From Promethearchaeia archaeon (GTDB lineage Archaea; Asgardarchaeota; Lokiarchaeia; Sigyniarchaeales; SOKP01), in assembly GCA_029856155.1 (NCBI GenBank), contig JAHQWL010000066.1:1-27704 (forward strand): a stretch of 27,704 bases of DNA. The letters run 5' to 3'. Positions 2,023 through 25,255 of this stretch are shown here, in pieces (position 1 is the first letter of the stretch; each line of letters begins with the position of its first letter). The translations under genes were made by a program, and so were the position numbers. Below the pieces are notes generated by a model. The model worked only from the letters and a program-made list of their open reading frames with translations, was not told the origin of the DNA and did not search any database.

Positions 2023-2928
2023 ATGGCCAAGATAGATAAATTGAATAATGTGATTACTGCTATGATAACTCCATTTAATGAAGACTTATCAATCGATGAA
2101 GAGAAGTATAGAGAATTTATTAGGTTTCAAATTGAAAATGATTGTCAAATCTTAACCATGGGTACAACTGGTGAAAGTGCAACCTTGTCCCACGAAGAAC
2201 ACCATAAAGCAATGGATATCGCAGTAGACGAAGCTCAGAGAAGTAAAAAAACCCCATTTGTATTAGCTGGCGCAGGGAGCAATTCTACAAAAGAAGCAGT
2301 TTCCTTATCTCAGTATGCTGAAAAAATTGGAGCAGATGGAATACTACAAGTAGTACCATATTATAATAAACCAGTGCAGCATTCTTTAATTGATCATTTT
2401 TCGGCTATTGCAGATTCTGTATCATTACCCATAATACTATACAACGTCCCTAGTCGTACTGGAAGAAATTTAGAGCCTGAAACGATATCTAAGCTAGCAT
2501 ATTCTAAAGATAACATCGTGGGGATAAAATGTGCCAGTGGAGACATTGATCAAATAACAAAAATAATTAAAACTACACCAGATGATTTTATTGTCTTAAG
2601 TGGAGACGATAGTATGACATATCACATAATGGCATTAGGAGGAAAAGGAGTTATAAGTGTAGCCTCTAATATTATTCCATTAAAAATATTTGAATTCACT
2701 AATACTATGCTTAATAATGACTGGAAAAAAGCTAGGGATATGCAATTAGAACTATATGCTTTATTCAAGGTTCTGTTCATCGAAACAAATCCAGGACCCG
2801 TGAAATTTGCTGCTGAAATTATGGGTATAATGGATAAAAGGATGAGAATGCCATTAACTCCCCCATTGGAAACAAATCAGAAAAAAATTATAGAAGTATT
2901 AGAAAATTTAAATCTAATTCAATTGTAA
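2023..2928 (+). CDS. dapA: 4-hydroxy-tetrahydrodipicolinate synthase
   Basis: GTTGES, PYYNKP, LYNVPSRTG, GIKCASG (Schiff-base Lys) and ETNPGPVK motifs; adjacent to dapB. Confidence 0.96.
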   Translation: MAKIDKLNNVITAMITPFNEDLSIDEEKYREFIRFQIENDCQILTMGTTGESATLSHEEHHKAMDIAVDEAQRSKKTPFVLAGAGSNSTKEAVSLSQYAEKIGADGILQVVPYYNKPVQHSLIDHFSAIADSVSLPIILYNVPSRTGRNLEPETISKLAYSKDNIVGIKCASGDIDQITKIIKTTPDDFIVLSGDDSMTYHIMALGGKGVISVASNIIPLKIFEFTNTMLNNDWKKARDMQLELYALFKVLFIETNPGPVKFAAEIMGIMDKRMRMPLTPPLETNQKKIIEVLENLNLIQL

Positions 2929-2942
2929 CTGGGGCTTAAATT

Positions 2943-3764
2943 ATGATTAAATTATTGATCTTAGGGCCAACTGGTTTTACTAGCAAGCTAATAAGTAAAT
3001 TAGCAATAGCAGACCAAGAAATAAATGTTGTGGCGGCATGCGATATCACTAATATTGGTGATGATTTAGGTTTATTAATAGGTGTAAAAGATCCAAATAA
3101 TATAAAAATAAATGATATAAATAATCTTCAAAAAGTAATTAATGAATCTAACCCAGATGTAGTAGTAGATTTTACAGTGGCACAAGCAACTGAAAAAAAT
3201 TGTATAATATGTGTTGAGAACGGAATACGATGTGTAATTGGTACCACTGCATTGTCAGAAGAATTTTTAAATAAATTTGAAGAACTTGTTAAAAAAAATA
3301 AAGCACCAGCGGTTATATCACCTAATATGGCTACTGGAATAAATATACTCTTTAAAATGGCATCAATACTCACTAAATATTTAGCTGATTGGGATATTGA
3401 AGTGTTAGAAGCGCATCATCATAGAAAAGTTGATGCTCCAAGCGGTACTGCAATGAAAATTGGACAAATAATAAGTAATGAACTTGGTTCTAATTTTGAA
3501 GATATTGCTAAATTTGGTCGGAGTAGGGGACCTAATAAGCGCTCAGTTGGCGCCAAAAATGAAATTGGAATTCATTCTATTAGAGCGGGTGATATTGTAG
3601 GAGATCATACAATATTGTATTGTGGACCAGGAGAAAGAATTGAATTGAAACATCAAGCTCATAGTAGAGAATGCTTTGCTAACGGGGCAATTGGAGCAAT
3701 TAAATTTATTTCAACTGCTAAAGAAAATAAGATATACTCCACAAGTGAAGTATTAGGCTTATAA
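2943..3764 (+). CDS. dapB: 4-hydroxy-tetrahydrodipicolinate reductase
   Basis: VDFT, IGTT, PNMATG, EAHHHRKVDAPSGTA and IHSIRAGDIVGDH motifs. Confidence 0.96.
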   Translation: MIKLLILGPTGFTSKLISKLAIADQEINVVAACDITNIGDDLGLLIGVKDPNNIKINDINNLQKVINESNPDVVVDFTVAQATEKNCIICVENGIRCVIGTTALSEEFLNKFEELVKKNKAPAVISPNMATGINILFKMASILTKYLADWDIEVLEAHHHRKVDAPSGTAMKIGQIISNELGSNFEDIAKFGRSRGPNKRSVGAKNEIGIHSIRAGDIVGDHTILYCGPGERIELKHQAHSRECFANGAIGAIKFISTAKENKIYSTSEVLGL

Positions 3765-3798
3765 AAGGAAATCTTCTTGATAATAAAGCTAATAGATA

Positions 3799-3950
3799 AG
3801 ATAAAATTATAAAAAAGATCAGTGCAGATCAGTATTATCATCAATCTTCTTAGTTGTAAAACTTTACATAGATTTCATTTTGCCAACACTTCATCGAGAG
3901 CATTAAGGGGTATCCAAGCCCTAATCGTCCCAATTTTTATAATTTTATCT
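3799..3950. repeat. Perfect 17-bp inverted repeat enclosing 118 bp
   Basis: 3799-3815 AGATAAAATTATAAAAA is the exact reverse complement of 3934-3950 TTTTTATAATTTTATCT. Confidence 0.9.
3817..3931 (-). ncRNA. Candidate structured RNA with C/D-box or K-turn-like motifs
   Basis: On the minus strand: 5' hairpin 3931..3896, AUGAAG (3894..3889), AUGA (3878..3875), UGAUGA (3843..3838), CUGA (3832..3829 and 3822..3819), then a U-tract. Stems AGUGUUG/UAAUACU and AAUCU/AGAUU each adjoin tandem GA pairs. G.U pairs work only on the minus strand. Confidence 0.55.
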
Positions 3951-4009
3951 CAATATAATAATAATAGACTTAAATTTTTATTTTTGTTGTTTGACCAAAG
4001 TAAAAAGAA

Positions 4010-5323
4010 TTATTTTAAATAATCCGGAACTGTTTGATTTCTAATTAGATCATCAAATGTTTCTTCATTACGGATTTTGTATAAATTACCATCATTTATT
4101 AATAGTTCTGCAGGTCTAGGTCTTGAATTATATGGGCTACTCATTGTATATCCATAGGCACCAGCATCTAAAATTGCTAGATAATCTCCTTCGTTCAATT
4201 CGGGTAATTCTCTGTCTTTGCCGAGGACATCTCCCGATTCACATATAGGTCCTACAATGTCATATTTTAATATTTTTTTTTTGTGTTTCTCGTTGCAATT
4301 TATTATATGATGATATGAACCATACATCGTGGGTCGAATTAAAGTGTTAAATCCCGCATCTAACCCGGCAAATAATTTATAACCATTATCTTTTATGGTG
4401 TTTATTTGTGTTAAAATAATGCTTGATTCTGCTGAAATATAACGTCCTGGTTCAATAAAAAGAAATGGCTCACCAATTTCGCCTTTTTCTACAATTTCTT
4501 TAAATCTAGTAAACACAATTTCGCTATATATATTTAAATCAAGGGGATCCTGTTCTGGACGATAGGGAATTCCAAGACCTCCACCAAAGTCTACAAACTC
4601 AAATTGAATCCCTAATTGCGATGACAATTTTTCTATAATGGTTATAAATTTCTCAATAGGTTTTTCATAATCTTTTGCGTTAATAATCCCTGACCCGATA
4701 TGTTGGTGAATCCCGAATTTTTTAAAACCCAAGTCCCTTGCCTTAGAATACACTTTAATCATCTGATTCTCTAATATACCGAATTTAATCTCCTTCCCTG
4801 CTGTTATGGTATGAGGATGATGTCCAGCCCCAAATTCGGGATTAAATCTAAAAGAAAGGATTCTTTTATCTTTTCCATTTTTTTCATATAAGTTTGCTAA
4901 CCTAATTAATTGACTATAGCTGTCTAAGTTCGTTAATATATCATTATCAATAGCAAATTTGAAATCATTATTCGTGAACATATTTCCGGTATAAATTATT
5001 CGTTCTGGGGAGATACCTGAACTTAAACAAGCATGGATCTCTCCTGTTGATGAGCAATCAAAATTCGATCTTTCAGAAACTAGTATTTTTAAAATCGATA
5101 AATTAGTATTTGACTTTACAGCAAAGTAAATCTTATTTTTTTTATATCCTGAATTCAATGTATCTTTTAATTCTCGATATCTCTTTCGAATCGTTTTTTC
5201 ATTTATAATATAAATTGGAGTTCTGAATTTTTCTGCAATTCCTAATGTGTTTAAATTGGCAAAATAAAGACCTCCATCTCGATATTCTAAATCTTTCCTG
5301 CTCAACCAGTCAATATAATTCAT
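4010..5323 (-). CDS. lysA: Diaminopimelate decarboxylase
   Basis: FAVKSN (PLP Lys), KFGI, HQHIGS, DFGGGLG, EPGRY, GPICESGD, GAYG and YNSRPRPAE motifs. Confidence 0.97.
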   Translation of the reverse strand: MNYIDWLSRKDLEYRDGGLYFANLNTLGIAEKFRTPIYIINEKTIRKRYRELKDTLNSGYKKNKIYFAVKSNTNLSILKILVSERSNFDCSSTGEIHACLSSGISPERIIYTGNMFTNNDFKFAIDNDILTNLDSYSQLIRLANLYEKNGKDKRILSFRFNPEFGAGHHPHTITAGKEIKFGILENQMIKVYSKARDLGFKKFGIHQHIGSGIINAKDYEKPIEKFITIIEKLSSQLGIQFEFVDFGGGLGIPYRPEQDPLDLNIYSEIVFTRFKEIVEKGEIGEPFLFIEPGRYISAESSIILTQINTIKDNGYKLFAGLDAGFNTLIRPTMYGSYHHIINCNEKHKKKILKYDIVGPICESGDVLGKDRELPELNEGDYLAILDAGAYGYTMSSPYNSRPRPAELLINDGNLYKIRNEETFDDLIRNQTVPDYLK

Positions 5324-5398
5324 AATCCTAAAAATCTAGGTCATTAAAGTGATACATATCTTAGAAAACTAAATTATTCTTATCTTAAAAGTAAATCG

Positions 5399-6280
5399 TT
5401 AAACCTCGATCCTCTCAATTATACCATCAAAAACTTTTTCTATCGGACCTTCCATAAAAACTCTTTTGCCAGTATAGGTAATCTTTAAATCCCCGCCGTC
5501 ATTATGCACTAATATAGGTTTATTTTCTTTAAAAATACCTAATATAGTACCTGCTACAATAGACGCACAAGCCCCCGTACCACATGATTTAGTGATTCCA
5601 ACTCCTCTTTCAAAAACTCTCACAATAGCCTCTTCTTCGGAGATTACTTTGACGAATTCAACATTTACCTTATTTGGAAAGCGATCATGAGATTCTATTG
5701 CCGCTCCATACATGTTTAAATTGCCATCATTTAGTTGCTCTTTAGTAAATATAACAGCGTGAGGATTGCCCATTGAAACAGCTGTAAAGTTAAATATTTT
5801 ATCCAAAATCACTAATTGTTCATTAACACATCGATTAACTAAGCTGTCTAAGATAACAGGGATTTCTTCACAATTCAGAATTGGTGCACCCATATCAATT
5901 TCAACACTATTAACTTTATCATTAATAATGTTAAGTTTTGCTACCAAGATTCCCTTGAGAGTTTCTATTTTAATCTCATCTTTTTTAACAATATCATTCT
6001 CATAGATATATTTTGAAAAACATCTTATCCCATTCCCACACATTTCCGCTTCTAATCCATCATTATTAAATATCCTCATTTTAATATCAGCATCTTTAGA
6101 TTCACATACGAATAGTAATCCATCTGCTCCTATTGAAAAATGAATTTCACACAAGTTTAGTGCTAAAAGTGATTTTTTTTCTTCTGGAATATTCCATAAA
6201 ATATCATTAATTATTACATAATCATTACCAAGTCCATGATATTTACCAAAATCCAAATTTTCTAAAATTAAATACTCCAT
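5399..6280 (-). CDS. dapF: Diaminopimelate epimerase
   Basis: KYHGLGNDY, IGADG, AEMCGNGIRC, SMGNPH and ERGVGITKSCGTGA motifs. Confidence 0.97.
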   Translation of the reverse strand: MEYLILENLDFGKYHGLGNDYVIINDILWNIPEEKKSLLALNLCEIHFSIGADGLLFVCESKDADIKMRIFNNDGLEAEMCGNGIRCFSKYIYENDIVKKDEIKIETLKGILVAKLNIINDKVNSVEIDMGAPILNCEEIPVILDSLVNRCVNEQLVILDKIFNFTAVSMGNPHAVIFTKEQLNDGNLNMYGAAIESHDRFPNKVNVEFVKVISEEEAIVRVFERGVGITKSCGTGACASIVAGTILGIFKENKPILVHNDGGDLKITYTGKRVFMEGPIEKVFDGIIERIEV

Positions 6281-14346: not shown

Positions 14347-14574
14347 TTAAGCTTTTTCAATTTTTAAATAAAAATTTTCTCCTTCAGTCTTGAACTCTAA
14401 GATTTTATCTTCAATTCTATCTAAATATCGTTTAATATTTTCTCCTGCCTCTGCGTAATCACCAGTAACTTCCAATATTTCTCCACTATTCATCTCAAGA
14501 AGTTGTCTCTTAGTCTTCGCTACAGGCATCGGACAAACAAGACCAGAACAATCTAATTTATATGAACCTGTCAT
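14347..14574 (-). CDS. tusA: TusA/SirA-family sulfur carrier protein
   Basis: LDCSGLVCPMP (CPxP motif), GEILEV, 75 aa. Confidence 0.9.
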   Translation of the reverse strand: MTGSYKLDCSGLVCPMPVAKTKRQLLEMNSGEILEVTGDYAEAGENIKRYLDRIEDKILEFKTEGENFYLKIEKA

Positions 14575-14595
14575 TTTTTAATCAGTACCTTAAAA

Positions 14596-14955
14596 TTAGC
14601 TAAATAATATATTATCAGCTTCTTCGCACATTTCAACAAATCCATTCATAGTAGTTTTTGCAATTCCATCTATTAGTTCATCATCAGATAATCCACGTGC
14701 TTTCATACATACACCACAAGCTTTAACTTTTGCACCTTCAGAAATTACATCAGTCATCCATCTTCCTACATTATCATATGTGGTTGGATCTTGATTCTTC
14801 TTTCCCACAAAAACACCATCCTCAACTAAGAATATATTTACCTTATGTTCTTCCAATATTGCAGTGTAGGCAAATCTTAACATAGTATAGGGGCGTTCAC
14901 TTGTGTAAGCACCATCTCCAATAACAATAGTAAATATTTTCCTTTTTTCTGACAT
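14596..14955 (-). CDS. DsrE/DsrF-like family sulfur relay protein
   Basis: IFLVEDGV and ACGVCMKARG motifs, 119 aa. Confidence 0.88.
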   Translation of the reverse strand: MSEKRKIFTIVIGDGAYTSERPYTMLRFAYTAILEEHKVNIFLVEDGVFVGKKNQDPTTYDNVGRWMTDVISEGAKVKACGVCMKARGLSDDELIDGIAKTTMNGFVEMCEEADNILFS

Positions 14956-15048
14956 TTTTGCTTTTCCTCTATTAGTGTTAAGTCTAAAAGTAGTTTTGTT
15001 TCTGCAATTACTTAAAATTAAGACATTTATTAAATTTTTCGTATGGTT

Positions 15049-15125
15049 CTATTAAAAAAATCGATAAATACTAATAGTTTAATTATCTTATATTTTAAAT
15101 AGTATATTAGATATTTCAAATCGAT
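15049..15125. promoter_or_regulatory. Putative LysR-type operator boxes in the dsrE/lysR divergent intergenic region
   Basis: Two T-N11-A boxes ending in AAATCGAT (15051-15065 and 15111-15125); CTATTA...TAATAG dyad at 15049-15077. Confidence 0.35.
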
Positions 15126-15132
15126 TTAAATC

Positions 15133-16050
15133 ATGAATATTGAATACCTAAGAAACTTTATTAAACTAACTCAATATAAAAGTTTCTCAAAATTAGCAAA
15201 TAAAATTCCTATCTCGCAGAGCACATTATCTCATCAAATATCTCAGTTAGAAAAAGATTTTAGTGGAGTTATGCTAATTGATAGAACTACAAAGAAATTT
15301 GAGTTAACTAAAGCTGGAAAAGTTTTCCTTGAACATGCACAACGGATAATAGAGTTGTATGATAATTGTAAACTAGAAATATCTAAATTCAAGAATCAAA
15401 TTGAAGAATCGATTATTATATCAGCTTCAACCATTCCTGGATCTCATATCTTACCCCGATATGTAGCAGATTTTAGAAATAAAAATCCAAATGTAAATTT
15501 CAAAATTTTGATTAATAATTCTCAAAAATCAATTGAAAATCTACAATATGGGAAGGTTGATTTCGCTGGTATTGGTAGTTTTATGGGTTATAATGAGAAA
15601 GAGTTTGAATTTATCAAAATAGGTGAAGATAAATTTAAATTTATATGTTCACCCAATCATGAATTGCTTCAAGCCAGAAATATAATTAATTTTGATAAGC
15701 TAATTAAATATCCCTTTGTATGGAGAGAAAAAGGTTCGGGAATGAGAGAAACATTTATGCACCAATTTCCAGATTATAAGAAATTAGATATTGAATTAGA
15801 AATTAATGATAATGACTCGATTATTTCTACTGTTAGTGAGTCTAATTATATTAGTATAATGAGTGAAATAATGGTTGATAAAGCAGAATCAGCGGGTTTG
15901 ATTAAATCCTTAAAAATTAGAGATTATCCCGTTATCGCTAAAAGAGCCTTATATTTTGTTAAAATTAAAAATAAAAAGTTAAGCAATCTTAAGGAAAAAT
16001 TCTGGAATGAATTAGAAATAGGATTTGAAAACAATTTTGAACAAAAATAA
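15133..16050 (+). CDS. LysR-family transcriptional regulator (CysL-like substrate-binding domain)
   Basis: N-terminal HTH SFSKLANKIPISQSTLSHQISQLE..LIDRT; SASTIPG and REKGSGMR motifs. Confidence 0.92.
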   Translation: MNIEYLRNFIKLTQYKSFSKLANKIPISQSTLSHQISQLEKDFSGVMLIDRTTKKFELTKAGKVFLEHAQRIIELYDNCKLEISKFKNQIEESIIISASTIPGSHILPRYVADFRNKNPNVNFKILINNSQKSIENLQYGKVDFAGIGSFMGYNEKEFEFIKIGEDKFKFICSPNHELLQARNIINFDKLIKYPFVWREKGSGMRETFMHQFPDYKKLDIELEINDNDSIISTVSESNYISIMSEIMVDKAESAGLIKSLKIRDYPVIAKRALYFVKIKNKKLSNLKEKFWNELEIGFENNFEQK

Positions 16051-16088: not shown

Positions 16089-17591
16089 TTAAACTCTAAC
16101 CCTAATTTCTCTCTTTCGAAGATATATTTTTAAATCTCTTATAGACATAATTTTATAATGAAATAATGAGGCGGCTAAAACAGCTTCAGCTCCCACATTA
16201 ATCGCTTGAAAAAAATGGTTATAATCTCCCGCACCTCCCGATGCTATTATAGGTATGTGTAGTGAATTTGAAAGCATTTGAATTAAATCCAAATCATAGC
16301 CAGATTTAGTTCCATCTTTATCCATACTGGTAAGAAGAATTTCTCCTGCACCTCTCCTAACTGCTTCTTTTGCCCAATTTAATACATCCAAACCAGTTGG
16401 TTCCGTTCCTGATTTAATATATACTTCCCAGTTGGTTTCAGTCTTTTTTGCATCAATAGCAAGTACAATACTTTGAGTACCAAATTTTAGAGATCCTTTA
16501 TTAATCAGTGAAGGATCTTTCACAGCTGCCGTGTTTATACATACCTTTTCTGCTCCTGCTTTTATAATTTGAGTCATCTCGTTAAGATTGCTTATTCCTC
16601 CTCCAACAGAAAAAGGTATATTTATATTTTCGGCTACAGATTTTAGTGTTTCCATCATTATTTGGCGTCCCTCGAGGGTTGCAGATACATCGAGAAAGAT
16701 CAATTCATCGGCTCCTTCTTGGTTATAGAATTTAGAAAGAACTACTGGATCTCCACTGTCTCTTAAATCTTTAAATTTTACACCTTTAACAACCCTTCCG
16801 TCCTTTATATCAAGACAAGGTATGATTCTTTTAGTTAAATTAGTCGGATTATACTTTATAATTAATGATCTAAATTCATTTTCTAATATTCTATTTCTAT
16901 ATAAAGCTTCTCCAATAATTATCCCATTTGAGTAATTAAGTACACTTTCAACATCTTTCTTCGTTCTAATTCCTCCAGATGCAATTATTTCTGAATCTCT
17001 TTCTTTTAAAGAAACAAGCTCTTTATATAATTCAATATTTGGTCCAATTGAAGTGCCATCCCGTGAAATATCAGTAATTATAAAATGAGAAATTCCTATT
17101 TCTTCTAACTTTTTTAACATCGTATTCAAACTAACTCTTGTATTACTCTGCCAACCTTTTATCATCACATTATTATCCATTACATCTAAAGAGACAATTA
17201 TTTCATCTTGAAATTTCTTTACTAGTTTTTGAGTTAGCTCTAGATTTTCAACTGCTATTGTACCAATTATAACATTATTAACACCCCTATTCAGTAGATT
17301 TTTTATTGTTTTTTCTTTTCTAATTCCTCCTCCAACCTGAATTTTACAATCCCAATTATTACATAATTCAGACAATGACAAAATAACATCAAAATTAGGA
17401 GTATTTTCAAATTCTCCAAATTTAGCTCCGTTTAAATTGATAACATGCAAATGGGTTGCTCCTTGTTGACAAAAACTTTCAGCAATTTTGATTGGATTTT
17501 TTGAATAATAATTGATTTTTTGAAAATTTCCTTGATATAATCTGACAACTTGTTCGTTATAAAGATCAATTGCTGGAATAATTTTTTTCAT
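16089..17591 (-). CDS. hisAF: HisA-HisF fusion (ProFAR isomerase + imidazole glycerol phosphate synthase cyclase subunit)
   Basis: Residues 1-250: IIPAIDL..VVRLYQG, QVGGGIR, TDISRDGT, ASGG. Residues 251-500: KRIIPCLD..GRVVKGV, GADELIFLDV, GAGEILLTSMDKDGTKSGYD, AVLAASLFH. No stop between the halves. Confidence 0.95.
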   Translation of the reverse strand: MKKIIPAIDLYNEQVVRLYQGNFQKINYYSKNPIKIAESFCQQGATHLHVINLNGAKFGEFENTPNFDVILSLSELCNNWDCKIQVGGGIRKEKTIKNLLNRGVNNVIIGTIAVENLELTQKLVKKFQDEIIVSLDVMDNNVMIKGWQSNTRVSLNTMLKKLEEIGISHFIITDISRDGTSIGPNIELYKELVSLKERDSEIIASGGIRTKKDVESVLNYSNGIIIGEALYRNRILENEFRSLIIKYNPTNLTKRIIPCLDIKDGRVVKGVKFKDLRDSGDPVVLSKFYNQEGADELIFLDVSATLEGRQIMMETLKSVAENINIPFSVGGGISNLNEMTQIIKAGAEKVCINTAAVKDPSLINKGSLKFGTQSIVLAIDAKKTETNWEVYIKSGTEPTGLDVLNWAKEAVRRGAGEILLTSMDKDGTKSGYDLDLIQMLSNSLHIPIIASGGAGDYNHFFQAINVGAEAVLAASLFHYKIMSIRDLKIYLRKREIRVRV

Positions 17592-17592
17592 A

Positions 17593-18201
17593 CTATAACC
17601 TCTCCTTTATCATCGAGACAAAATACTCTAAAATCTTATTTCCCGGTTCTTTACTTTTTTCCGGGTGAAATTGTGTTCCTAATATATTCCCTTTTTTGAT
17701 TATGGCGGGAAAAAATCTACCATGGAGAACATAATTAATAATAACTTTGATATCATGAGGTTTACAATAATACGAGTGATTGAAATACACATAACCATTA
17801 AAATCAGGTTTTAAAACTGGGATAAGACGATTCCATCCTGTATGAGGAATTCGAATTGATAAAGAATTGTTTAACTTAAATACTTTTCCAGGTATCAGGT
17901 TAAGACCTTTTGCATTCATGGTTTCTTCTGAAGTTGAAAATAATAATTGCATACCCAAACATATTCCTAAAGTAGGTATTCTCCCTATATTCGCTTTTAA
18001 GTAATCAAACAAACCAATTTCTGTAAGTTTGGTTATTGCATCACCAAACGACCCTACACCAGGGAGTACAATCCCTCTTGCTTTTTGGATTAAAGAAAGC
18101 GCATGAGAAATCCTCACATCAGCATAATATTGTTCAATGCTTTTTTGAATTGAGCGAAGATTACCAGAACCATAATCAACGATAATTATTATTATTAACA
18201 C
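17593..18201 (-). CDS. hisH: Imidazole glycerol phosphate synthase glutaminase subunit; start is either GTG at 18201 or ATA at 18192
   Basis: IVDYGSGNLRS, LPGVGSF, GICLGMQ, PHTGWN and QFHPEKS motifs. The listed start at 18267 lies inside hisB and is unlikely. Confidence 0.93.
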   Translation of the reverse strand: MLIIIIIVDYGSGNLRSIQKSIEQYYADVRISHALSLIQKARGIVLPGVGSFGDAITKLTEIGLFDYLKANIGRIPTLGICLGMQLLFSTSEETMNAKGLNLIPGKVFKLNNSLSIRIPHTGWNRLIPVLKPDFNGYVYFNHSYYCKPHDIKVIINYVLHGRFFPAIIKKGNILGTQFHPEKSKEPGNKILEYFVSMIKERL

Positions 18202-18205
18202 CTCT

Positions 18206-18811
18206 CTATAATAATCCCTTACTTGATGGTGTTCTATCACTCCTTTTTGGATCATATCGAGAAGCATAATCTAAAGTTCTTCCAATTGCTTTAAATATTC
18301 CTTCAGCAATATGATGATTGTTTTTACCAGAAAGGAGTTTTACATGGAGGGTAATTTTTGCTTGAATTGCAAATGTATATAAAAAATGTTCTATTAAATC
18401 AACTGGAATTAAGTTATCTTCTTTAGATCCTAAATATGGATTGACCCAATCTATTTCAGAAGCGAAGAAAGGTCTTGATGAGATATCAATTGCAACAAAA
18501 ATTAAAACATCATCCATTGGAAAAAAACAATGACTTACTCGATTAATACCTATTTTTTTTCCTATAGCTTTTCTAAATGCTTTTCCTAAAAGAATCGCAG
18601 TATCCTCAATCAGATGATGAGTATCTACATTTAGATCTCCCCTTGCTTTTATTTCTAAGTCAAATGAACCATGGACAGCAATTTGAGTTAAAAGGTGATC
18701 AAAAAATCCGAGATCTGTTTGTATATCTGTATTCCCTTTACCATCAATATTTAATTTAATTTTAATATCCGTTTCTTTAGTTTTTCTAGCTAATTCAAAT
18801 CTTCTTCCCAT
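18206..18811 (-). CDS. hisB: Imidazoleglycerol-phosphate dehydratase (monofunctional)
   Basis: RKTKETDI, FFDHLL, GDLNVDTHHLIED, PMDD, GKNNHHIAEGIFKA and PSSKG motifs. Confidence 0.96.
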   Translation of the reverse strand: MGRRFELARKTKETDIKIKLNIDGKGNTDIQTDLGFFDHLLTQIAVHGSFDLEIKARGDLNVDTHHLIEDTAILLGKAFRKAIGKKIGINRVSHCFFPMDDVLIFVAIDISSRPFFASEIDWVNPYLGSKEDNLIPVDLIEHFLYTFAIQAKITLHVKLLSGKNNHHIAEGIFKAIGRTLDYASRYDPKRSDRTPSSKGLL

Positions 18812-18812
18812 T

Positions 18813-19937
18813 CTAATTCACCTCAAAAAATGAATTCATTCCTTCTAGAACTTTATCCATTTGGGATCTTGTACCGATTGAAATTCGAAGACAAGAAGAG
18901 AGTTCAATTTCCTCATATTTCCTGACTTTAATTTTTAAATTCAATAGATGCCGATAAACTGCTCCAGCAGTGTCCGATGAGTTAAATCTTATTAAAAAAA
19001 AAGAACCCGCACTTGGATGAATTAAACAATTTTGATTCAAATTATGAGTTTCAATCAATTTTTTGAAAAATTCATCTCTAGTGTTTTTGATTTTTTCAAT
19101 ATTTTCAAAAACTTTTTTCTGAGATTTAATAAGCTGTGTGCCAAATTTAGAAGCTAATCTATTTACATTGAAGGGGCTCTTTATTTGAAATAATACATTT
19201 TTTATAGATGGATCCATTATTCCATAACCCAATCGTAATCCCGCTAATCCATATGCTTTGCTAAATGTTCTTAAAACGATTAAGTTTCTATATTTACTGA
19301 CTAAATTTACCATAGAGCTTTTATTACTAAATTCTATATATGCCTCATCGATTATTGTTAACTTATTTAGCTTTAACAGCTTTAGTATGAACTTTCTTCT
19401 TGCTATACTTCCATCAGGATTATTTGGCCGTGCTAAAATAATTACCTTTGCGATATTAGCTAATCTTAAGAACTTCTCTTCATCTATATTATAAAGTGCA
19501 ATGCCTTTGGAGTGGTTTAAGCTTAATTTTAAAGATTCTGAAATATATTCTGCTCCATTTATTTGCGAATAAATTTTGTACATGGGAAAACTTGGCGAAA
19601 CACTTAAGATTTTGTCATTTTTTTCGGTATATGATCTAATAACCATATCTAACAATTCATCAGAGCCATTTCCACTCAATAAATATGATTCAGGAATGTT
19701 TAATTTTTCAGAAATGCAATTCAAAAGATTTAAACAAAAAGAATCGGGATATCTTCTTAAATCTTGGAGCAGTTCTGATACTGAGAAATTATCTAAAGGG
19801 GGTAGATATGGATTTTCATTTTTATCCAAACGTATAAAATTCCCATTTGATGAATTATCTATTTTATATGATATTGAATTGTATCTAATTAATTGTTTAA
19901 TTTTTTCAGATGGAAAAATAATATTAGGTTCTTTCAT
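18813..19937 (-). CDS. hisC: Histidinol-phosphate aminotransferase
   Basis: LDKNENP, RYPD, GNGSDE, PNNPDG, IDEAY, RTFSKAYGLAGLRLG and LRISIG motifs. Confidence 0.94.
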   Translation of the reverse strand: MKEPNIIFPSEKIKQLIRYNSISYKIDNSSNGNFIRLDKNENPYLPPLDNFSVSELLQDLRRYPDSFCLNLLNCISEKLNIPESYLLSGNGSDELLDMVIRSYTEKNDKILSVSPSFPMYKIYSQINGAEYISESLKLSLNHSKGIALYNIDEEKFLRLANIAKVIILARPNNPDGSIARRKFILKLLKLNKLTIIDEAYIEFSNKSSMVNLVSKYRNLIVLRTFSKAYGLAGLRLGYGIMDPSIKNVLFQIKSPFNVNRLASKFGTQLIKSQKKVFENIEKIKNTRDEFFKKLIETHNLNQNCLIHPSAGSFFLIRFNSSDTAGAVYRHLLNLKIKVRKYEEIELSSCLRISIGTRSQMDKVLEGMNSFFEVN

Positions 19938-21298
19938 ATTGATCCACTACCATCCTTTTTTTTATAAATATTTCTTTGATTAACCGCATTAGAATGAGCT
20001 GTTAATCCTTCACTTTTACCGAATATTGCAGCAAATTTAGACAAAGATTGAGCAACTTTATCTGATAGATAGACAATATTTATTATTTTAACAAAATCCA
20101 AAACGGACAGAGGAGATGAAAATCGAGCAGAACCATTTGTGGGCATTATATGACTAGGTCCAGCAATATAATCACCTAGCACTTCATAAGAATTCTCACC
20201 AACGAAAATTCCACCCGCATTTTGAATTTTAGAAATTATACTCCAAGGATTTTTTATCATTAAAGATAAATGTTCAGGAGCAAATTTATTTGATATATCT
20301 ATAGATTCTTCAAGAGACTCTGTTAAAATAATACCTCCCTTATATTTTAAAGCAGATTGTATAATCTCTTTTCTTTCAAGCGTTTCAAATTGATTATAAA
20401 GTTCTTTCTGGACTTGTGAAATTAGGGATTCATCATGCGTTAATAAAATAGGAATCGCTAAATAGTCATGTTCCGCTTGAGCTAGGAGATCTGAAGCAAC
20501 AAAAGTAGGATTTGCAAATTCATCAGCTATAATCATTGCTTCTGTGGGACCATAAATACCATCAATCCCTACATCACCATACACTTCTTTTTTTGCCAAA
20601 TTAACAAAAAGATTACCTGCACCTACAATTTTATCTACTCTTGGAACTTGATTTGTTCCATAAGCTAAAGCTGCTATAGCCTGAGCTCCCCCTAACTTAA
20701 AAATCCGAACATTTACATTTAATTTTATTATGAGACTACATGCAGCTAAAATTTCTGGTGCAAGTTCTCCCTGATTATTAGGAGGACTAGTAAAAATGAT
20801 TTCTTTTGTTCCGGCAACAACAGCGGGAATAGCAGACATTAATATTGAAGAAAATAAGGGTGTTTTTCCTCCAGGGATATATATTCCTATCTTTTTAATA
20901 GGTGTAATTATTTGTCCTAAATTTCCGCCAAGATCATATCGAATCCAATTGGTAATCGGTTGTGCTTGGTGAAAAGCTAAAATTCTATCACAAGCAATTT
21001 GCAAGGCTTTTCGTAAATTTGGGTCAATTTGTTTAACATATTTTTCTAAATCATCATCAAATAGCTCGAATTGAGTTAAAACAACTTTTTCTAGTTTATT
21101 GGTCCAATATAATAATGCATCATCTCTTCTCTCTTTCACATCGTTTACAATTGTTTTCACAATTTCATTTGGTGTTAAATTCTTGCCGAAAATATCTTTT
21201 ATTGCGTTTTTAACTGGTACCGGGATATTAGCTGTGAGTATCGAATCTCTTCTAAGAATTGTTTTTCTGGCCTCTCTTATTGTATAAATTCTAATCAT
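19934..21298 (-). CDS. hisD: Histidinol dehydrogenase
   Basis: GIYIPGG, GGAQAIAALAYG, GPTE, DLLAQAEH, APEHL, GDYIAGPSHIMPT and EGLTAH motifs. Confidence 0.97.
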   Translation of the reverse strand: MIRIYTIREARKTILRRDSILTANIPVPVKNAIKDIFGKNLTPNEIVKTIVNDVKERRDDALLYWTNKLEKVVLTQFELFDDDLEKYVKQIDPNLRKALQIACDRILAFHQAQPITNWIRYDLGGNLGQIITPIKKIGIYIPGGKTPLFSSILMSAIPAVVAGTKEIIFTSPPNNQGELAPEILAACSLIIKLNVNVRIFKLGGAQAIAALAYGTNQVPRVDKIVGAGNLFVNLAKKEVYGDVGIDGIYGPTEAMIIADEFANPTFVASDLLAQAEHDYLAIPILLTHDESLISQVQKELYNQFETLERKEIIQSALKYKGGIILTESLEESIDISNKFAPEHLSLMIKNPWSIISKIQNAGGIFVGENSYEVLGDYIAGPSHIMPTNGSARFSSPLSVLDFVKIINIVYLSDKVAQSLSKFAAIFGKSEGLTAHSNAVNQRNIYKKKDGSGSI

Positions 21299-22310
21299 TA
21301 TCTATACCTATTTTTTTTATTAATTCTTTATATCTCAAGGATTCTTCTTCAAAAATGTAAAGAGTTGGAATAACTACAACACCACTCCCTCCAATGGAAC
21401 GTAAATTGTTTATAGCTTGCTTTAAATTACTTTTTTCAACAATAATATGAATTGCATACATTTTTTCACCAGATTGAGTATAAACAGGTGATATTGTAGG
21501 GCCCTGAAGACCTTTAAGTCCCTTTTTTGAAAAGATAGATTTTATTACATTTTCTTTGCTTTGACCTCGCATGTTTACAAAAACTGATACAAATTTTTTT
21601 GCTCTTAAGCTAGCTTCAAAATACTCTATTAATTCTCTTGTAACCTTTAAAACCATCATATCTCTCAAAGCAGTTCGATTACCGATTAACACTGCCTCTG
21701 ATTTCATTATACACCCATTTTTTACTCTTTTTAATCTATTATCCTTTAATGTCTGACCTGTAGATACAAGATCAACAATAATATCGCAATATCCTAACTC
21801 GGGATATACTTCAAGAGAACCATTACCTTCGACCAATTCGTAAGAAATGCCGTTAAACTCTAAAAAATTCTTGGTAAGCTTAGGGAACTTTGTTGCTACT
21901 TTAACTTTTCCTCTATTTCTTTTAATATCTTGTAAAGTATTTTCAATCCATTCATCTGGTACTGCTATTTCAAGACTACAAGTACCAAAATTTAGTGAAT
22001 CAAGAATGACAACTAAACCATTCTCTCCTATTGGAATGTGTTCACAAACCAAATCATTACCAACAATTCCTAATTCTAGAGTTCCATTTAGAACTCCACG
22101 TACAATATCAACTTGTCTTTGATAAACTAATTGAATACTGAGTGGTCTTTGAATATAGTCAGTATATTGTCTATCTTTTCTTGTTAATTTAAATCCACAA
22201 GTCTGCAAAAAATCTTGAGTTTCTACTTCCATTCTTCCTTTCGAAGGAATGGCTAGCCTGATTGGATGTGATTTATAAGTTATTAGTGATTTTTGTAGCT
22301 TATTATTCAT
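21291..22310 (-). CDS. hisG: ATP phosphoribosyltransferase, long form with C-terminal regulatory domain
   Basis: LAIPSKGRM, LGIVGND, VATKFP, GSLE, DLVSTGQTLKDNRL and GLQGPTISPV motifs. The ATG at 22310 overlaps the hisIE stop (ATGA), so it is preferred over 22325. Confidence 0.95.
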   Translation of the reverse strand: MNNKLQKSLITYKSHPIRLAIPSKGRMEVETQDFLQTCGFKLTRKDRQYTDYIQRPLSIQLVYQRQVDIVRGVLNGTLELGIVGNDLVCEHIPIGENGLVVILDSLNFGTCSLEIAVPDEWIENTLQDIKRNRGKVKVATKFPKLTKNFLEFNGISYELVEGNGSLEVYPELGYCDIIVDLVSTGQTLKDNRLKRVKNGCIMKSEAVLIGNRTALRDMMVLKVTRELIEYFEASLRAKKFVSVFVNMRGQSKENVIKSIFSKKGLKGLQGPTISPVYTQSGEKMYAIHIIVEKSNLKQAINNLRSIGGSGVVVIPTLYIFEEESLRYKELIKKIGIDND

Positions 22311-23464
22311 ATATTTCGCCTCCATAGTTCATTAATAACATCATTTGGAAAGATTCCCTTTTCTGCCATTAGGACAAGTAAAAAATAAGTTAAATCAGAA
22401 ATCTCCCAAATTAAATTATCATTATCACTATAATTAATTACCTCATCACTCTCTTCTTGAATTTTGGAAAGTAATAGTTTTAAATTATTAGCCAATTTCT
22501 TTGTATATGATTCTTTTTCAGATGAATTTTGAATACGATCTGAGATGAAATCATAAAGAAAGCCTATTGAAAAGTTTGAATCATTAAAGCAAGAATAGGA
22601 TCCTGTATGACACGCAACATTTTTTTGTTTGACAATAAAAATTAAAGAATCAGCATCACAATCAAAATAAATCCTTCTAAGAATTTGACGACTCCCCGAC
22701 TCTTCCCCCTTTATCCAGATTTTTCTTCGAGATCTACTATAATATGTTGGTTCTTTAGTTTTTATTGTTCTTTTAAGAGTATTCTTTGATGAATAAGCAA
22801 GCATTAAGATCTCCCCATATTCATCTTGTACAATTGTAGGGATTAATCCATCTAATTTCTTAAAATCCAGTGAATTTACTAAAATTTCATCGATTAACGA
22901 TACATCCATACTAAAATCAAAATTTATTAAGATCCCCACTCCTTGTGAAGCAACAGCTAAATAACTGGGATATATCTCATTATAACTAAAAACAACAGGG
23001 ACTTTAATGTTTGATTTAAATATTGAAAGTCTTGATTGGATTTCTTCCCCTGAAATTATGTTATCTTCTAAATCTAAAATAATTCTTGAATAATTATCAA
23101 ATAGATTTAAAGAAATCATTTCATAATTTTTCGATTTTATTAATAGCACTTTCCTCGATTTTGGAATCTGATCTAATTTCTTACCATTTAGATCAGAATT
23201 GAAAACTAACTTTTTTACTCCACTCATCAATAACTTCCCTGAAAAAATAATTGTACTCTGCCGTATTATTACCCACACACTAACATTTTTACAAATATTC
23301 TTGATAAGACCATTCTGAATTATTCTAGAGATTTGGTCCTTATTACCATCTAAAACCAATGTAATAAAAACATCCCAATTTCTTTTTAAGAAAATATTTT
23401 CCAAAAATTCCGAAATTTTACAGAATTTTTCAATATCGCCAATGTTTATATTCAATAATATCAT
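22307..23464 (-). CDS. hisIE: HisI-HisE bifunctional enzyme with a ~195-aa N-terminal extra domain
   Basis: HisI motifs GLIPTIVQD, MLAY, YSRSR..IWIKGEESG, DCDAD, ACHTG..SCF; HisE motifs SYT..L, KIQEESDE, EISDLTYFLLV. Confidence 0.93.
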   Translation of the reverse strand: MILLNINIGDIEKFCKISEFLENIFLKRNWDVFITLVLDGNKDQISRIIQNGLIKNICKNVSVWVIIRQSTIIFSGKLLMSGVKKLVFNSDLNGKKLDQIPKSRKVLLIKSKNYEMISLNLFDNYSRIILDLEDNIISGEEIQSRLSIFKSNIKVPVVFSYNEIYPSYLAVASQGVGILINFDFSMDVSLIDEILVNSLDFKKLDGLIPTIVQDEYGEILMLAYSSKNTLKRTIKTKEPTYYSRSRRKIWIKGEESGSRQILRRIYFDCDADSLIFIVKQKNVACHTGSYSCFNDSNFSIGFLYDFISDRIQNSSEKESYTKKLANNLKLLLSKIQEESDEVINYSDNDNLIWEISDLTYFLLVLMAEKGIFPNDVINELWRRNI

Positions 23465-23528
23465 TTACATAGCCTCAAAATTGAGTTAATATAACTATAA
23501 TGTAGTTCCCAATTATTCTATTATAAAT

Positions 23529-23556
23529 CAAAAGAAATAGTTAATCGAAACTACTT
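23529..23556 (-). terminator. Terminator-like hairpin plus U-rich tract overlapping the leader ORF stop codon
   Basis: AAGUAGUU-UCGAUU-AACUAUUU (8 bp including one G.U) followed by CUUUUG. Confidence 0.45.
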
Positions 23557-23682
23557 ATGTGTTGGAAAATGATGCATGATGTGATTATCTTCAGAAAAAA
23601 AATTCACACCAACATCAAGAAAAGATCTCCAATAAAAATTATTATGAACTGAAAAAGAATTTTTTTTGCTAATCATTTTCAT
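23551..23682 (-). CDS. Putative his operon leader peptide (43 aa)
   Basis: MKMISKKNSFSVHNNFYWRSFLDVGVNFFSEDNHIMHHFPTHK*. It has 5 His, 4 of them in the last 10 codons, is on the same strand as hisIE and ends 86 nt before it. Confidence 0.65.
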   Translation of the reverse strand: MKMISKKNSFSVHNNFYWRSFLDVGVNFFSEDNHIMHHFPTHK

Positions 23683-23842
23683 AACATGTTTTTTGTAGAT
23701 CTTAAAAATAACCTAGGGCTAATGCCCATTATTTATTTAATTAAATAACTTTATTGAATTAGCCTTAAATAGTTTACTGTCACTATAGATAATTGTCAGA
23801 TTAACAGAAGTTTTTAGATATGTAAAAAAAAAGGGATTATTA

Positions 23843-25255
23843 TTATTTTATTAATACTCCCGTTTGATCAAAATTTAGAAATGCACTTATTTTTTGTTTT
23901 AGTGGAAAAACACCCTCTTTCAATAAGGTTACTAAAAAAATAGTAACAAACACAATCGACCCTAAACCTGGGGAAAATCCACTTAAAATATCAACAAAAG
24001 AAGATGTTGGATCCCAAGAGAAAAACGTATATACTAGTGAAATTCCAGCTATTAAAATTGAAATAAAAGATATTATCGCAGCTGCTTTTCTGCTAAGATT
24101 TAAATGTATTGGACCAAGATCAAGTCGGAAATATTTGGGTTGTACTATAATTGATAATATTGTATGACTAATTATTTGTTCTTCGAATTCTACATAAATA
24201 TTTAGAAATCGTCTCTCGTTCTCTTTTTTCTTCTTTTTGTTTTTTTTAGATTTGAGAGGCATAATAGAAAAAATCATTACTGGAGGATTAACCGCATCCT
24301 TCTTAACCTCAACTTTTCCAAAGATTGGATGTACTTCGAAACCTTCTCCAGCAATTTTAAGATCTAAAACTGGAGGTTCTTCCTTAGTTGTCACTATTGT
24401 AAATGACGTCTCATAGATAGTTTTACCCTCCTCATCTACAATCTTCAATTCTTTATGCGAAAAATAAACATAAAACAAATAACTTCGTTGTTCCATCATA
24501 ACTGAATAATATTGAAGACCCATATTAATCTCATATATAGTTGGTTGGGGTTCATCTGGAGTAACTATAGAAGGTTCTAGTTCTGACTTAAGTGGTGGAG
24601 CTCCAGGGCCAGCTAATATATCTGAAGCCGGAAGTGGTGAAGGTGCTGCAGGTGCAGAAGTTTTTGCTGGCGCTCCGCTAGGAGGTGAAGGTGGAGCACT
24701 CCCTCCAGGAGGTGCTGGTGATGGAAATGCTCGTGATTTTTTCTTTGCTTTTGGAGATTCTCTCATTCTATGAGATTCTTCGCTTTTTCTCTCATCTCTT
24801 TTTGTCTTTTTTTCTTCTCTATAATATTCTTCTTTATATTTTACACCATCATCGAAAGAGCTTAATTCTGCAATATCTTCATCATAATAATCCTCTTCTT
24901 CTATCTCATAGACTTCGTCTTTCTTTAATTCCTTATATTCTCGCTTTTTAGGTGGTTCTTCTACTTCCTTCTCTGCTTTCTTTTTTCTTAATAATTTGAG
25001 CTTTTTTAACTTGGTGGTTTCACCTATTCGTGTATTAGTTACAAAATCTATAAAATAAATATCTATACGATTTAATTGAGTATCCCCTAAAGACGCAAAA
25101 ATATCTTCTAAAATTATACTTAGCCTTGTTGATTTCTTATAAATCCCTACAAACATGAAATCTATAATCTCTACCGATAGTACACATGATTTTTTATCAT
25201 AGAATATCTTATTAGTTGGAATTTCAAGACTCGAAATACTTTTCAAAGATTCCAA
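23843..25255 (-). CDS. Hypothetical membrane protein with charged and Pro-rich low-complexity regions and two C-terminal TM helices
   Basis: TTG start with GAGGT SD; K/E/D-rich segment; FPSPAPPGGSAPPSPPSGAP; beta-rich domain; two hydrophobic helices near the C-terminus. Confidence 0.8.
   Translation of the reverse strand: MESLKSISSLEIPTNKIFYDKKSCVLSVEIIDFMFVGIYKKSTRLSIILEDIFASLGDTQLNRIDIYFIDFVTNTRIGETTKLKKLKLLRKKKAEKEVEEPPKKREYKELKKDEVYEIEEEDYYDEDIAELSSFDDGVKYKEEYYREEKKTKRDERKSEESHRMRESPKAKKKSRAFPSPAPPGGSAPPSPPSGAPAKTSAPAAPSPLPASDILAGPGAPPLKSELEPSIVTPDEPQPTIYEINMGLQYYSVMMEQRSYLFYVYFSHKELKIVDEEGKTIYETSFTIVTTKEEPPVLDLKIAGEGFEVHPIFGKVEVKKDAVNPPVMIFSIMPLKSKKNKKKKKENERRFLNIYVEFEEQIISHTILSIIVQPKYFRLDLGPIHLNLSRKAAAIISFISILIAGISLVYTFFSWDPTSSFVDILSGFSPGLGSIVFVTIFLVTLLKEGVFPLKQKISAFLNFDQTGVLIK

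Follow-up and report, generated by a model that had tools for sequence, protein, structure and literature searches.

Architecture of the his operon and its leader region

The window, by which we denote the entire 27,704-nucleotide stretch of Promethearchaeia archaeon DNA that was analysed, harbours on its reverse strand a histidine biosynthesis operon with the gene order hisIE-hisG-hisD-hisC-hisB-hisH-(hisA-hisF fusion), which is preceded by a short His-rich open reading frame (ORF). From upstream to downstream, the features are:

23824..23832 (-): T9 run, 11 nt after the stop codon of the upstream gene; putative terminator (PMC7515710)
23763..23777 (-): conserved motif resembling a promoter, with a TATA-like part at 23771-23764, located 92-98 nt ahead of the leader start; putative promoter
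23716..23727 (-): small 5' hairpin with a 4-bp GC stem; a small one at the same place is discernible by eye in several relatives
23701..23708 (-): TATA-like box TTTTTAAG; present, not conserved and probably incidental
23551..23682 (-): leader ORF of 43 codons, conserved in 16 genomes with its frame kept
23570..23617 (-): predicted hairpin H1, in which the His codons are paired with codons further upstream in the leader as long as no ribosome is present
23502..23554 (-): hairpin H3, starting at the leader stop codon
23460..23501 (-): hairpin H4, here containing the Shine-Dalgarno (SD) sequence (GAGG, 23476-23473) and the AUG of hisIE
22307..23464 (-): hisIE with an N-terminal extension of ~190 aa, the first gene that would be controlled
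16089..22325 (-): hisG, hisD, hisC, hisB, hisH and the hisA-hisF fusion

The initial annotation had proposed a 43-codon His-rich ORF ahead of hisIE as a leader peptide, and its position, length, His codons and stop codon were all borne out. The His codons lie at 23583, 23574, 23571 and 23559 (four within the last ten codons), the stop codon occupies 23553-23551, and the hisIE ATG at 23464 follows 86 nt past that stop on the same (-) strand. A second ATG at 23676 provides an alternative start, from which the leader comprises 41 codons. The ribosome-binding site before the leader is weak in this genome, with no clear SD; a Pfam search with the leader peptide gave no match, and the assembly contains neither 16S nor tRNA-His.

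The N-terminal part of HisIE (22900-23464, -) comprises about 190 aa that match no family and resemble HisA only faintly; its counterpart in genome G055 is a HisA-like barrel, a further deletion of ~85 aa is seen in 13 relatives, and the extension is possibly a decaying barrel. HisA and HisF are fused into one 500-aa protein (16089-17591, -), HisB represents the dehydratase only, and a histidinol phosphatase gene was not seen in the his operon. Elsewhere in the window, TusA-like and DsrE-like genes are divergent from a LysR regulator (14347-16050) whose best match, below cut-off, is a selenium-associated family, and the genome has a tRNA-Sec call. Positions 2023-6280 carry genes of the diaminopimelate pathway (dapA, dapB, lysA-like and dapF), and upstream of the his operon a 470-aa protein without Pfam or NCBIfam match is encoded (23843-25255, -), featuring an acidic/basic stretch, a Pro-Ala linker and a hydrophobic C-terminus.

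Conservation of the leader

The binomial probability of finding 4 His within the final 14 codons is p = 1.2e-4, close to the rough estimate of ~1e-4 given initially. In a scan of the whole genome, 3 of 5183 upstream sORFs reach this level of His clustering, so that the cluster taken by itself lends modest support. The chance of such an sORF falling before the his operon is about 3 in 2109 genes, and since the leader is in addition kept in all 16 genomes with an operon of the same type, chance can be excluded.

Our survey covered 135 genomes of the family, 27 of which encode a bifunctional HisIE, and a His leader was found in front of histidine-synthesis genes in this genome and 18 relatives. 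The hisIE-first operon seen in the window occurs in 16 Promethearchaeota genomes from 3 genera, which were selected through their HisIE protein rather than through the leader, and the His-rich sORF that the initial annotation had suggested seeking before the his operons of relatives is present in 16/16. These leaders comprise 36-62 codons, the last 12 of which include 4-8 His codons, their stop codon is located 75-92 nt before hisIE, and in most relatives an SD-like GTGA is found ahead of the start codon. Read from a start, the frame stays open over 36-62 codons, while stops are present in the other two frames, and the distances from anchor to stop (75, 102, 111, 114 and 117 nt) are all divisible by 3; unlike these length changes within the ORF, the spacer lengths past the leader stop are not multiples of 3. 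The peptide itself is variable except for the His cluster. Metagenome contigs retrieved with the HisIE N-terminus alone carried the leader in 6/6 cases, two being new sequences. All leader-bearing relatives represent related sequences and not independent samples.

Operons starting with hisC (G055, G061 and G063) exhibit an unrelated His-rich leader 150-167 nt before hisC; G055 is the cultured Ca. Lokiarchaeum ossiferum, which carries both a His leader (L224), with its stop at genome position about 3,659,316, and a Leu leader (L212). The HisD proteins of the hisC-first genomes are placed elsewhere in the tree from those of hisIE-first operons. Since the HisD tree was calculated with a quick method and limited sampling, we claim neither a donor nor an order of events. 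A sister hisIE operon lacks the leader in nine genomes, and those of them included in the HisD tree group as one clade. In control sets, the same leader test was passed by 0 of the 31 gaps preceding his genes in 20 other loci (mostly hisG-D-C) and by 1 of 60 such gaps at non-his genes. Hence, given the nine sister operons and the 20 loci of other type without it, the leader is dispensable. A covariance model of our own detects a single copy per genome, at hisIE only (its matches being its training set), and we thus reject the notion of a mobile or repeated element.

Several further loci deserve mention. G018 carries two his sets, a leader-bearing hisIE operon (L003) and a hisG-D-C cluster that has no leader and is accompanied by a separate hisI (L253). 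In G055, a 20-codon ORF with a strong SD (L224:7440-7510) overlaps the hisC start and lies between the His leader and hisC. A Nanoarchaeota genome (MAG014, JAYEPB010000042.1; L069:201-287) contains four consecutive His codons followed by a stop about 75 nt before hisG, with a weak hairpin and a U-tract downstream; this run has no in-frame ATG, GTG or TTG and is known from a single 4.3-kb contig. A His-rich frame at a Woesearchaeota locus (L058) sits within a gene and was rejected as a leader.

Candidate promoter and predicted transcript start

Of 18 leaders, 12 show a strict promoter-like pattern, which is located at a distance of 80-98 nt from the start codon and matches 23777-23763 of the window; in the relatives the motif likewise lies 80-98 nt ahead of an SD-led leader start. 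The sequence thus points to transcription starting near 23740 and yielding a leadered mRNA. The TATA-like box TTTTTAAG assigned initially does exist at 23708-23701; it is not conserved, being missing from relatives. Moreover, the positions of TATA-like 8-mers ahead of starts hardly peak anywhere in this genome, and the box is, for both reasons, uninformative. The near-leaderless start that had been derived from it is superseded by the better, conserved candidate promoter 63 nt further upstream, and the leader is therefore probably not leaderless. As the leader of this genome lacks a clear SD, an additional leaderless promoter may nonetheless serve the ATG at 23676.

Archaeal termination uses U-tracts (PMC7515710), and the T9 run between the upstream gene and the promoter-like motif is likely a terminator insulating the his transcript from that gene. 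In about 12 leaders (L003, L004, L006 and related ones), a 7-nt segment before the leader SD is complementary to a conserved segment within the ORF, a pairing which could enclose the leader start and which is absent from this window.

RNA hairpins and ribosome position

The leader region folds better than shuffled sequences (z -2.9), and H1-like pairing is predicted in most relatives. Across 17 aligned leaders, 95% of the cells of H3 are paired, a value which drops to 27-53% in slid controls, and H3 and H4 jointly contain 9 pairs with two-sided changes versus 4.4 in shuffles; these covariation figures are inflated, the sequences being related and the structure being drawn from one row. The ribosome was represented in the folds by masking 13 nt counted from the A site, an assumption derived from the 27-nt ribosome footprint of Haloferax (PMC7261190). 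In the masked folds, H3 is intact with the ribosome stalled on the first His codons and lost with the ribosome on the stop codon. Placing the mask over the stop costs 11-16 kcal/mol of folding energy in 18/18 leaders, compared with 4.6 (median) and 9.6 kcal/mol (95th percentile) at 567 ordinary stops, and the loss at each leader stop is matched by 0-4 of 100 dinucleotide shuffles.

With the ribosome on the stop, about 5 nt more RNA is unpaired on average (positive in 17/18 leaders; 3 nt in this genome). A conserved U-tract after H3 was not found among the 18 leaders, no U-rich window opens consistently, and the U fraction after H3 (0.42) is about as expected for spacers of 19% GC; the U-rich loop of H3 (23535-23523) is confined to this genome. 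A G-rich SD is conserved 5-9 nt before the hisIE ATG, H4 adjoins this SD in relatives, and a stretch of T3-4 is invariant after or at the end of H4. An Rfam search returned nothing near gathering score, including no match to RF00514 (His_leader).

Cognate leaders in other amino acid pathways

When every upstream sORF of this genome was ranked blindly by amino acid clustering, the highest-ranked Trp sORF turned out to precede trpB2 and the highest-ranked Leu sORF to precede leuA (leuA-C-D-B):

Contig C82 of this genome (G000:C82), (-): Trp leader about 16 codons long, its end bearing four Trp, 147-159 nt upstream of trpB2 (L130:9680-11095)
Contig C26 of this genome (G000:C26), (-): Leu leader of 33 codons with a Leu run at its end, 87 nt upstream of leuA (L131:7823-9445)

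In the best-matching loci of the family, the Trp leader is kept in 28/30 and the Leu leader in 30/30, and the former is also present in one genome from outside the order. In the Trp leader, a hairpin spans the stop, and downstream of it come a long U-tract, open in stall and stop states alike, and additional hairpins; the hairpin of the Leu leader directly follows the stop and ends 25-30 nt before the SD. The threshold for a stop-anchored hairpin is passed by 28/30 Leu, 21/28 Trp and 1/3 hisC-type leaders. The amino acid of the leader hence follows the pathway in three operons, and the design is shared: the codons for the cognate amino acid are placed immediately ahead of the stop, and the stop is adjoined or spanned by a hairpin that withstands a stall and is lost upon a complete run.

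Of the cognate leaders which the initial annotation had proposed to seek, those for Trp (trpB2) and Leu (leuA) were thus found; no clear Ile, Val or Met leader was detected in this genome. A TIGR00120 search of this genome for argJ gave no match, and no Lys leader was seen before dapA, dapF or lysA in the window. A Tyr-rich 6-codon ORF was rejected as a Tyr leader and is treated as a chance occurrence, since it precedes trpS rather than tyrS; other top matches of the blind scan (before Sir2, FrhB, acyl-CoA dehydrogenase and ATPase genes) were dismissed as non-cognate. On contig G000:C102, a 28-codon ORF with 6 Leu in its last 12 codons is located about 158 nt before a class I synthetase gene near 16532 (-), which is probably leuS.

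Proposed sensor and readout

The initial proposal of a ribosome-read His-codon leader is upheld by an ORF that is conserved and keeps its frame, by the corresponding leaders for Trp and Leu and by a hairpin that folds depending on where the ribosome stands. Judged from sequence, the ORF is very probably a leader that senses His-tRNA, and it looks like the ribosome-read amino acid gauges of bacteria; that sensing would proceed by stalling is suggested by the design of the leader in conjunction with established decoding. We consider it very unlikely that the ORF encodes instead a His-rich small protein, for example one that binds metal, or that its His codons are the by-product of an RNA- or protein-binding motif. 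Such a role would accommodate the codon usage of the leaders (80 CAT to 5 CAC, versus 82:18 genome-wide), the pairing of these codons in H1 and the precedent of the actinobacterial LEU element, for which mutation of the Leu codons reportedly left regulation unchanged (PMC1262725). It is at odds, however, with a peptide that is conserved only in its His cluster and matches no Pfam family, with CAC variants that remain in frame, and with a leader amino acid that tracks the pathway in three operons.

The same His sensor might be read out in several ways. One possibility, which we regard as rather unlikely, is a translational output, in which the ribosome on the stop melts H3, the freed RNA closes over the SD and AUG of hisIE, and the downstream genes follow through coupling or polarity. 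In the aligned leaders H4 does adjoin or contain the SD, and it shows covariation; for ~2/3 of the leaders, opening the start region requires more energy in the stop state (by up to 6 kcal/mol), and in three related leaders a duplex occluding the AUG outperforms shuffled sequences (p 0.000-0.036). The sign of the shift is wrong, however, in this genome (6.9 to 5.9 kcal/mol) and in its two closest operon relatives, the anti-AUG duplex is at p = 0.68 here and not significant in 15/18 leaders, and the Leu leaders of the same design hold their hairpin away from the SD; with significance in 3/18 only, that duplex was rejected as a general switch. A stalled ribosome is known to protect ermC mRNA in Bacillus. 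By the same token, the stalled ribosome and H3 could protect the finished his transcript from an endonuclease or a 5'-3' exonuclease (aCPSF1, RNase J), an output which would require no coupling, fits the same ribosome-dependent hairpin and could draw on FttA, which possesses both nuclease activities (PMC11616081). We deem this mRNA-stability output distinctly improbable: a conserved cleavage motif was not seen, and by sequence the scheme is hard to tell from termination by FttA. Classical intrinsic attenuation, with H4 and the T run as terminator and a competing antiterminator, appears most improbable of all. The invariant T3-4 and the arrangement of H1, H3 and H4 are reminiscent of a three-hairpin leader, but a terminator scan of the region found no terminator-like site, the stem of H4 is rich in A and U, most folds of the stall and stop states retain H4 without a conserved competitor, and the Rfam His_leader model does not match.

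By elimination of other readouts, and by analogy to tna-like logic with FttA replacing Rho, we prefer conditional termination by aCPSF1/FttA before hisIE, which is plausible and tentatively put forward here. Termination by FttA had been considered initially in the form of a stalled ribosome shielding a U-tract; this variant is not supported, since the loop 23535-23523 is not conserved and lies beyond the stalled footprint, and the best candidate readout would be FttA acting in a modified form, via the hairpin or via coupling and not through direct cover. aCPSF1/FttA is encoded in this genome (TIGR03675 over cut-off), and Loki aCPSF1 terminates transcription in Methanococcus (PMC7515710). FttA spans nascent RNA from -1 to -36, has been proposed to exclude the ribosome and may compete with it for Spt5 (PMC11616081). 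Direct evidence for transcription-translation coupling is scarce in archaea (PMC13681488), and none was found in the literature for Asgard.

According to the preferred mechanism, transcription would begin near 23740 and the leader would be translated while the RNA is being made. When charged tRNA-His is scarce, the ribosome would wait, as established for decoding, at those His codons that lie 18-30 nt ahead of the stop; H3 and then H4 are computed to fold in this position, so that the 86-nt spacer would become largely double-stranded, while the ribosome would stay on the RNA near the polymerase. FttA would thereby be denied single-stranded nascent RNA and contact with Spt5, the polymerase would reach hisIE, and a new ribosome would load at the hisIE SD after read-through. 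With enough histidine, the ribosome would instead reach the stop, prevent H3 (the melting of which is computed) and leave; FttA could then cleave in the spacer, and transcription would end before hisIE.

Comparison with known systems

Ribosome-mediated attenuation is textbook bacterial regulation. Enterobacterial hisL (RF00514) and the His attenuators predicted for Firmicutes (PMC9413887) likewise comprise a short ORF with a His cluster before the first his gene, conserved hairpins after this ORF and sensing by ribosome stalling. The Asgard leader differs from hisL in its archaeal host, its length of 36-62 codons and its key hairpin, which starts at the stop codon; since a GC-rich terminator with U-run, an antiterminator and a match to the RF00514 model are all lacking, we do not classify it as a member of hisL.

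The closest logic is that of factor-dependent leader attenuation, exemplified by E. coli tnaC with Rho and proposed for mycobacterial cys leaders (PMC1262725), where a ribosome held at the leader end decides on the action of a termination factor and an intrinsic terminator is absent. In contrast to tnaC, however, the factor here would be the nuclease aCPSF1/FttA, a functional analogue of Rho, and stalling would result from codon starvation and thus respond to lack, whereas tnaC relies on nascent-peptide arrest and responds to excess. Consistently, a nascent-peptide arrest motif is not conserved, as the peptide varies beyond the His cluster and the hisC-type leaders are unrelated.

Translational attenuators (ermC, cat) also combine an sORF of cognate codons with a hairpin at the downstream SD, and the same likeness holds for the leaderless poly-Cys sORFs of mycobacteria (bioRxiv 10.1101/834739), from which the Asgard leader differs in that it appears to be leadered and SD-led. 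A hairpin over the SD or start is found here as well, H4 covering SD and AUG in this genome and adjoining the SD in relatives; unlike in ermC and cat, a conserved ribosome-dependent opening of the SD was not found, the sign being wrong here and inconsistent across leaders.

Eukaryotic uORF control (GCN4, CPA1/arg-2) requires scanning. The resemblance consists in a uORF that links amino acid state to a biosynthetic gene, but hisIE is equipped with an SD of its own, and a ribosome stalled under starvation would obstruct scanning and entail the wrong regulatory sign. The bridge to eukaryotic uORF control that the initial annotation had envisaged is, for these reasons, unsupported.

Implications

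In the literature searched, which comprised few subscription papers, no report of an archaeal leader-peptide attenuator was found. It is tempting to speculate, though we do so with reserve, that Loki-type Asgard archaea possess a multi-pathway (His, Trp, Leu) leader system in which a ribosome's position on a uORF controls, by means of a stop-anchored hairpin and without an intrinsic terminator, whether the CPSF73 homologue aCPSF1/FttA cleaves and terminates prematurely, and which evolved or was rebuilt within archaea. The system is accessible, because the cultured Ca. Lokiarchaeum ossiferum has His and Leu leaders and Loki aCPSF1 functions in Methanococcus. If the readout is indeed termination, the leaders would naturally report on transcription-translation coupling and on FttA quality control, which have both been called open questions (PMC13681488, PMC11616081), and would do so in the lineage closest to eukaryotes.
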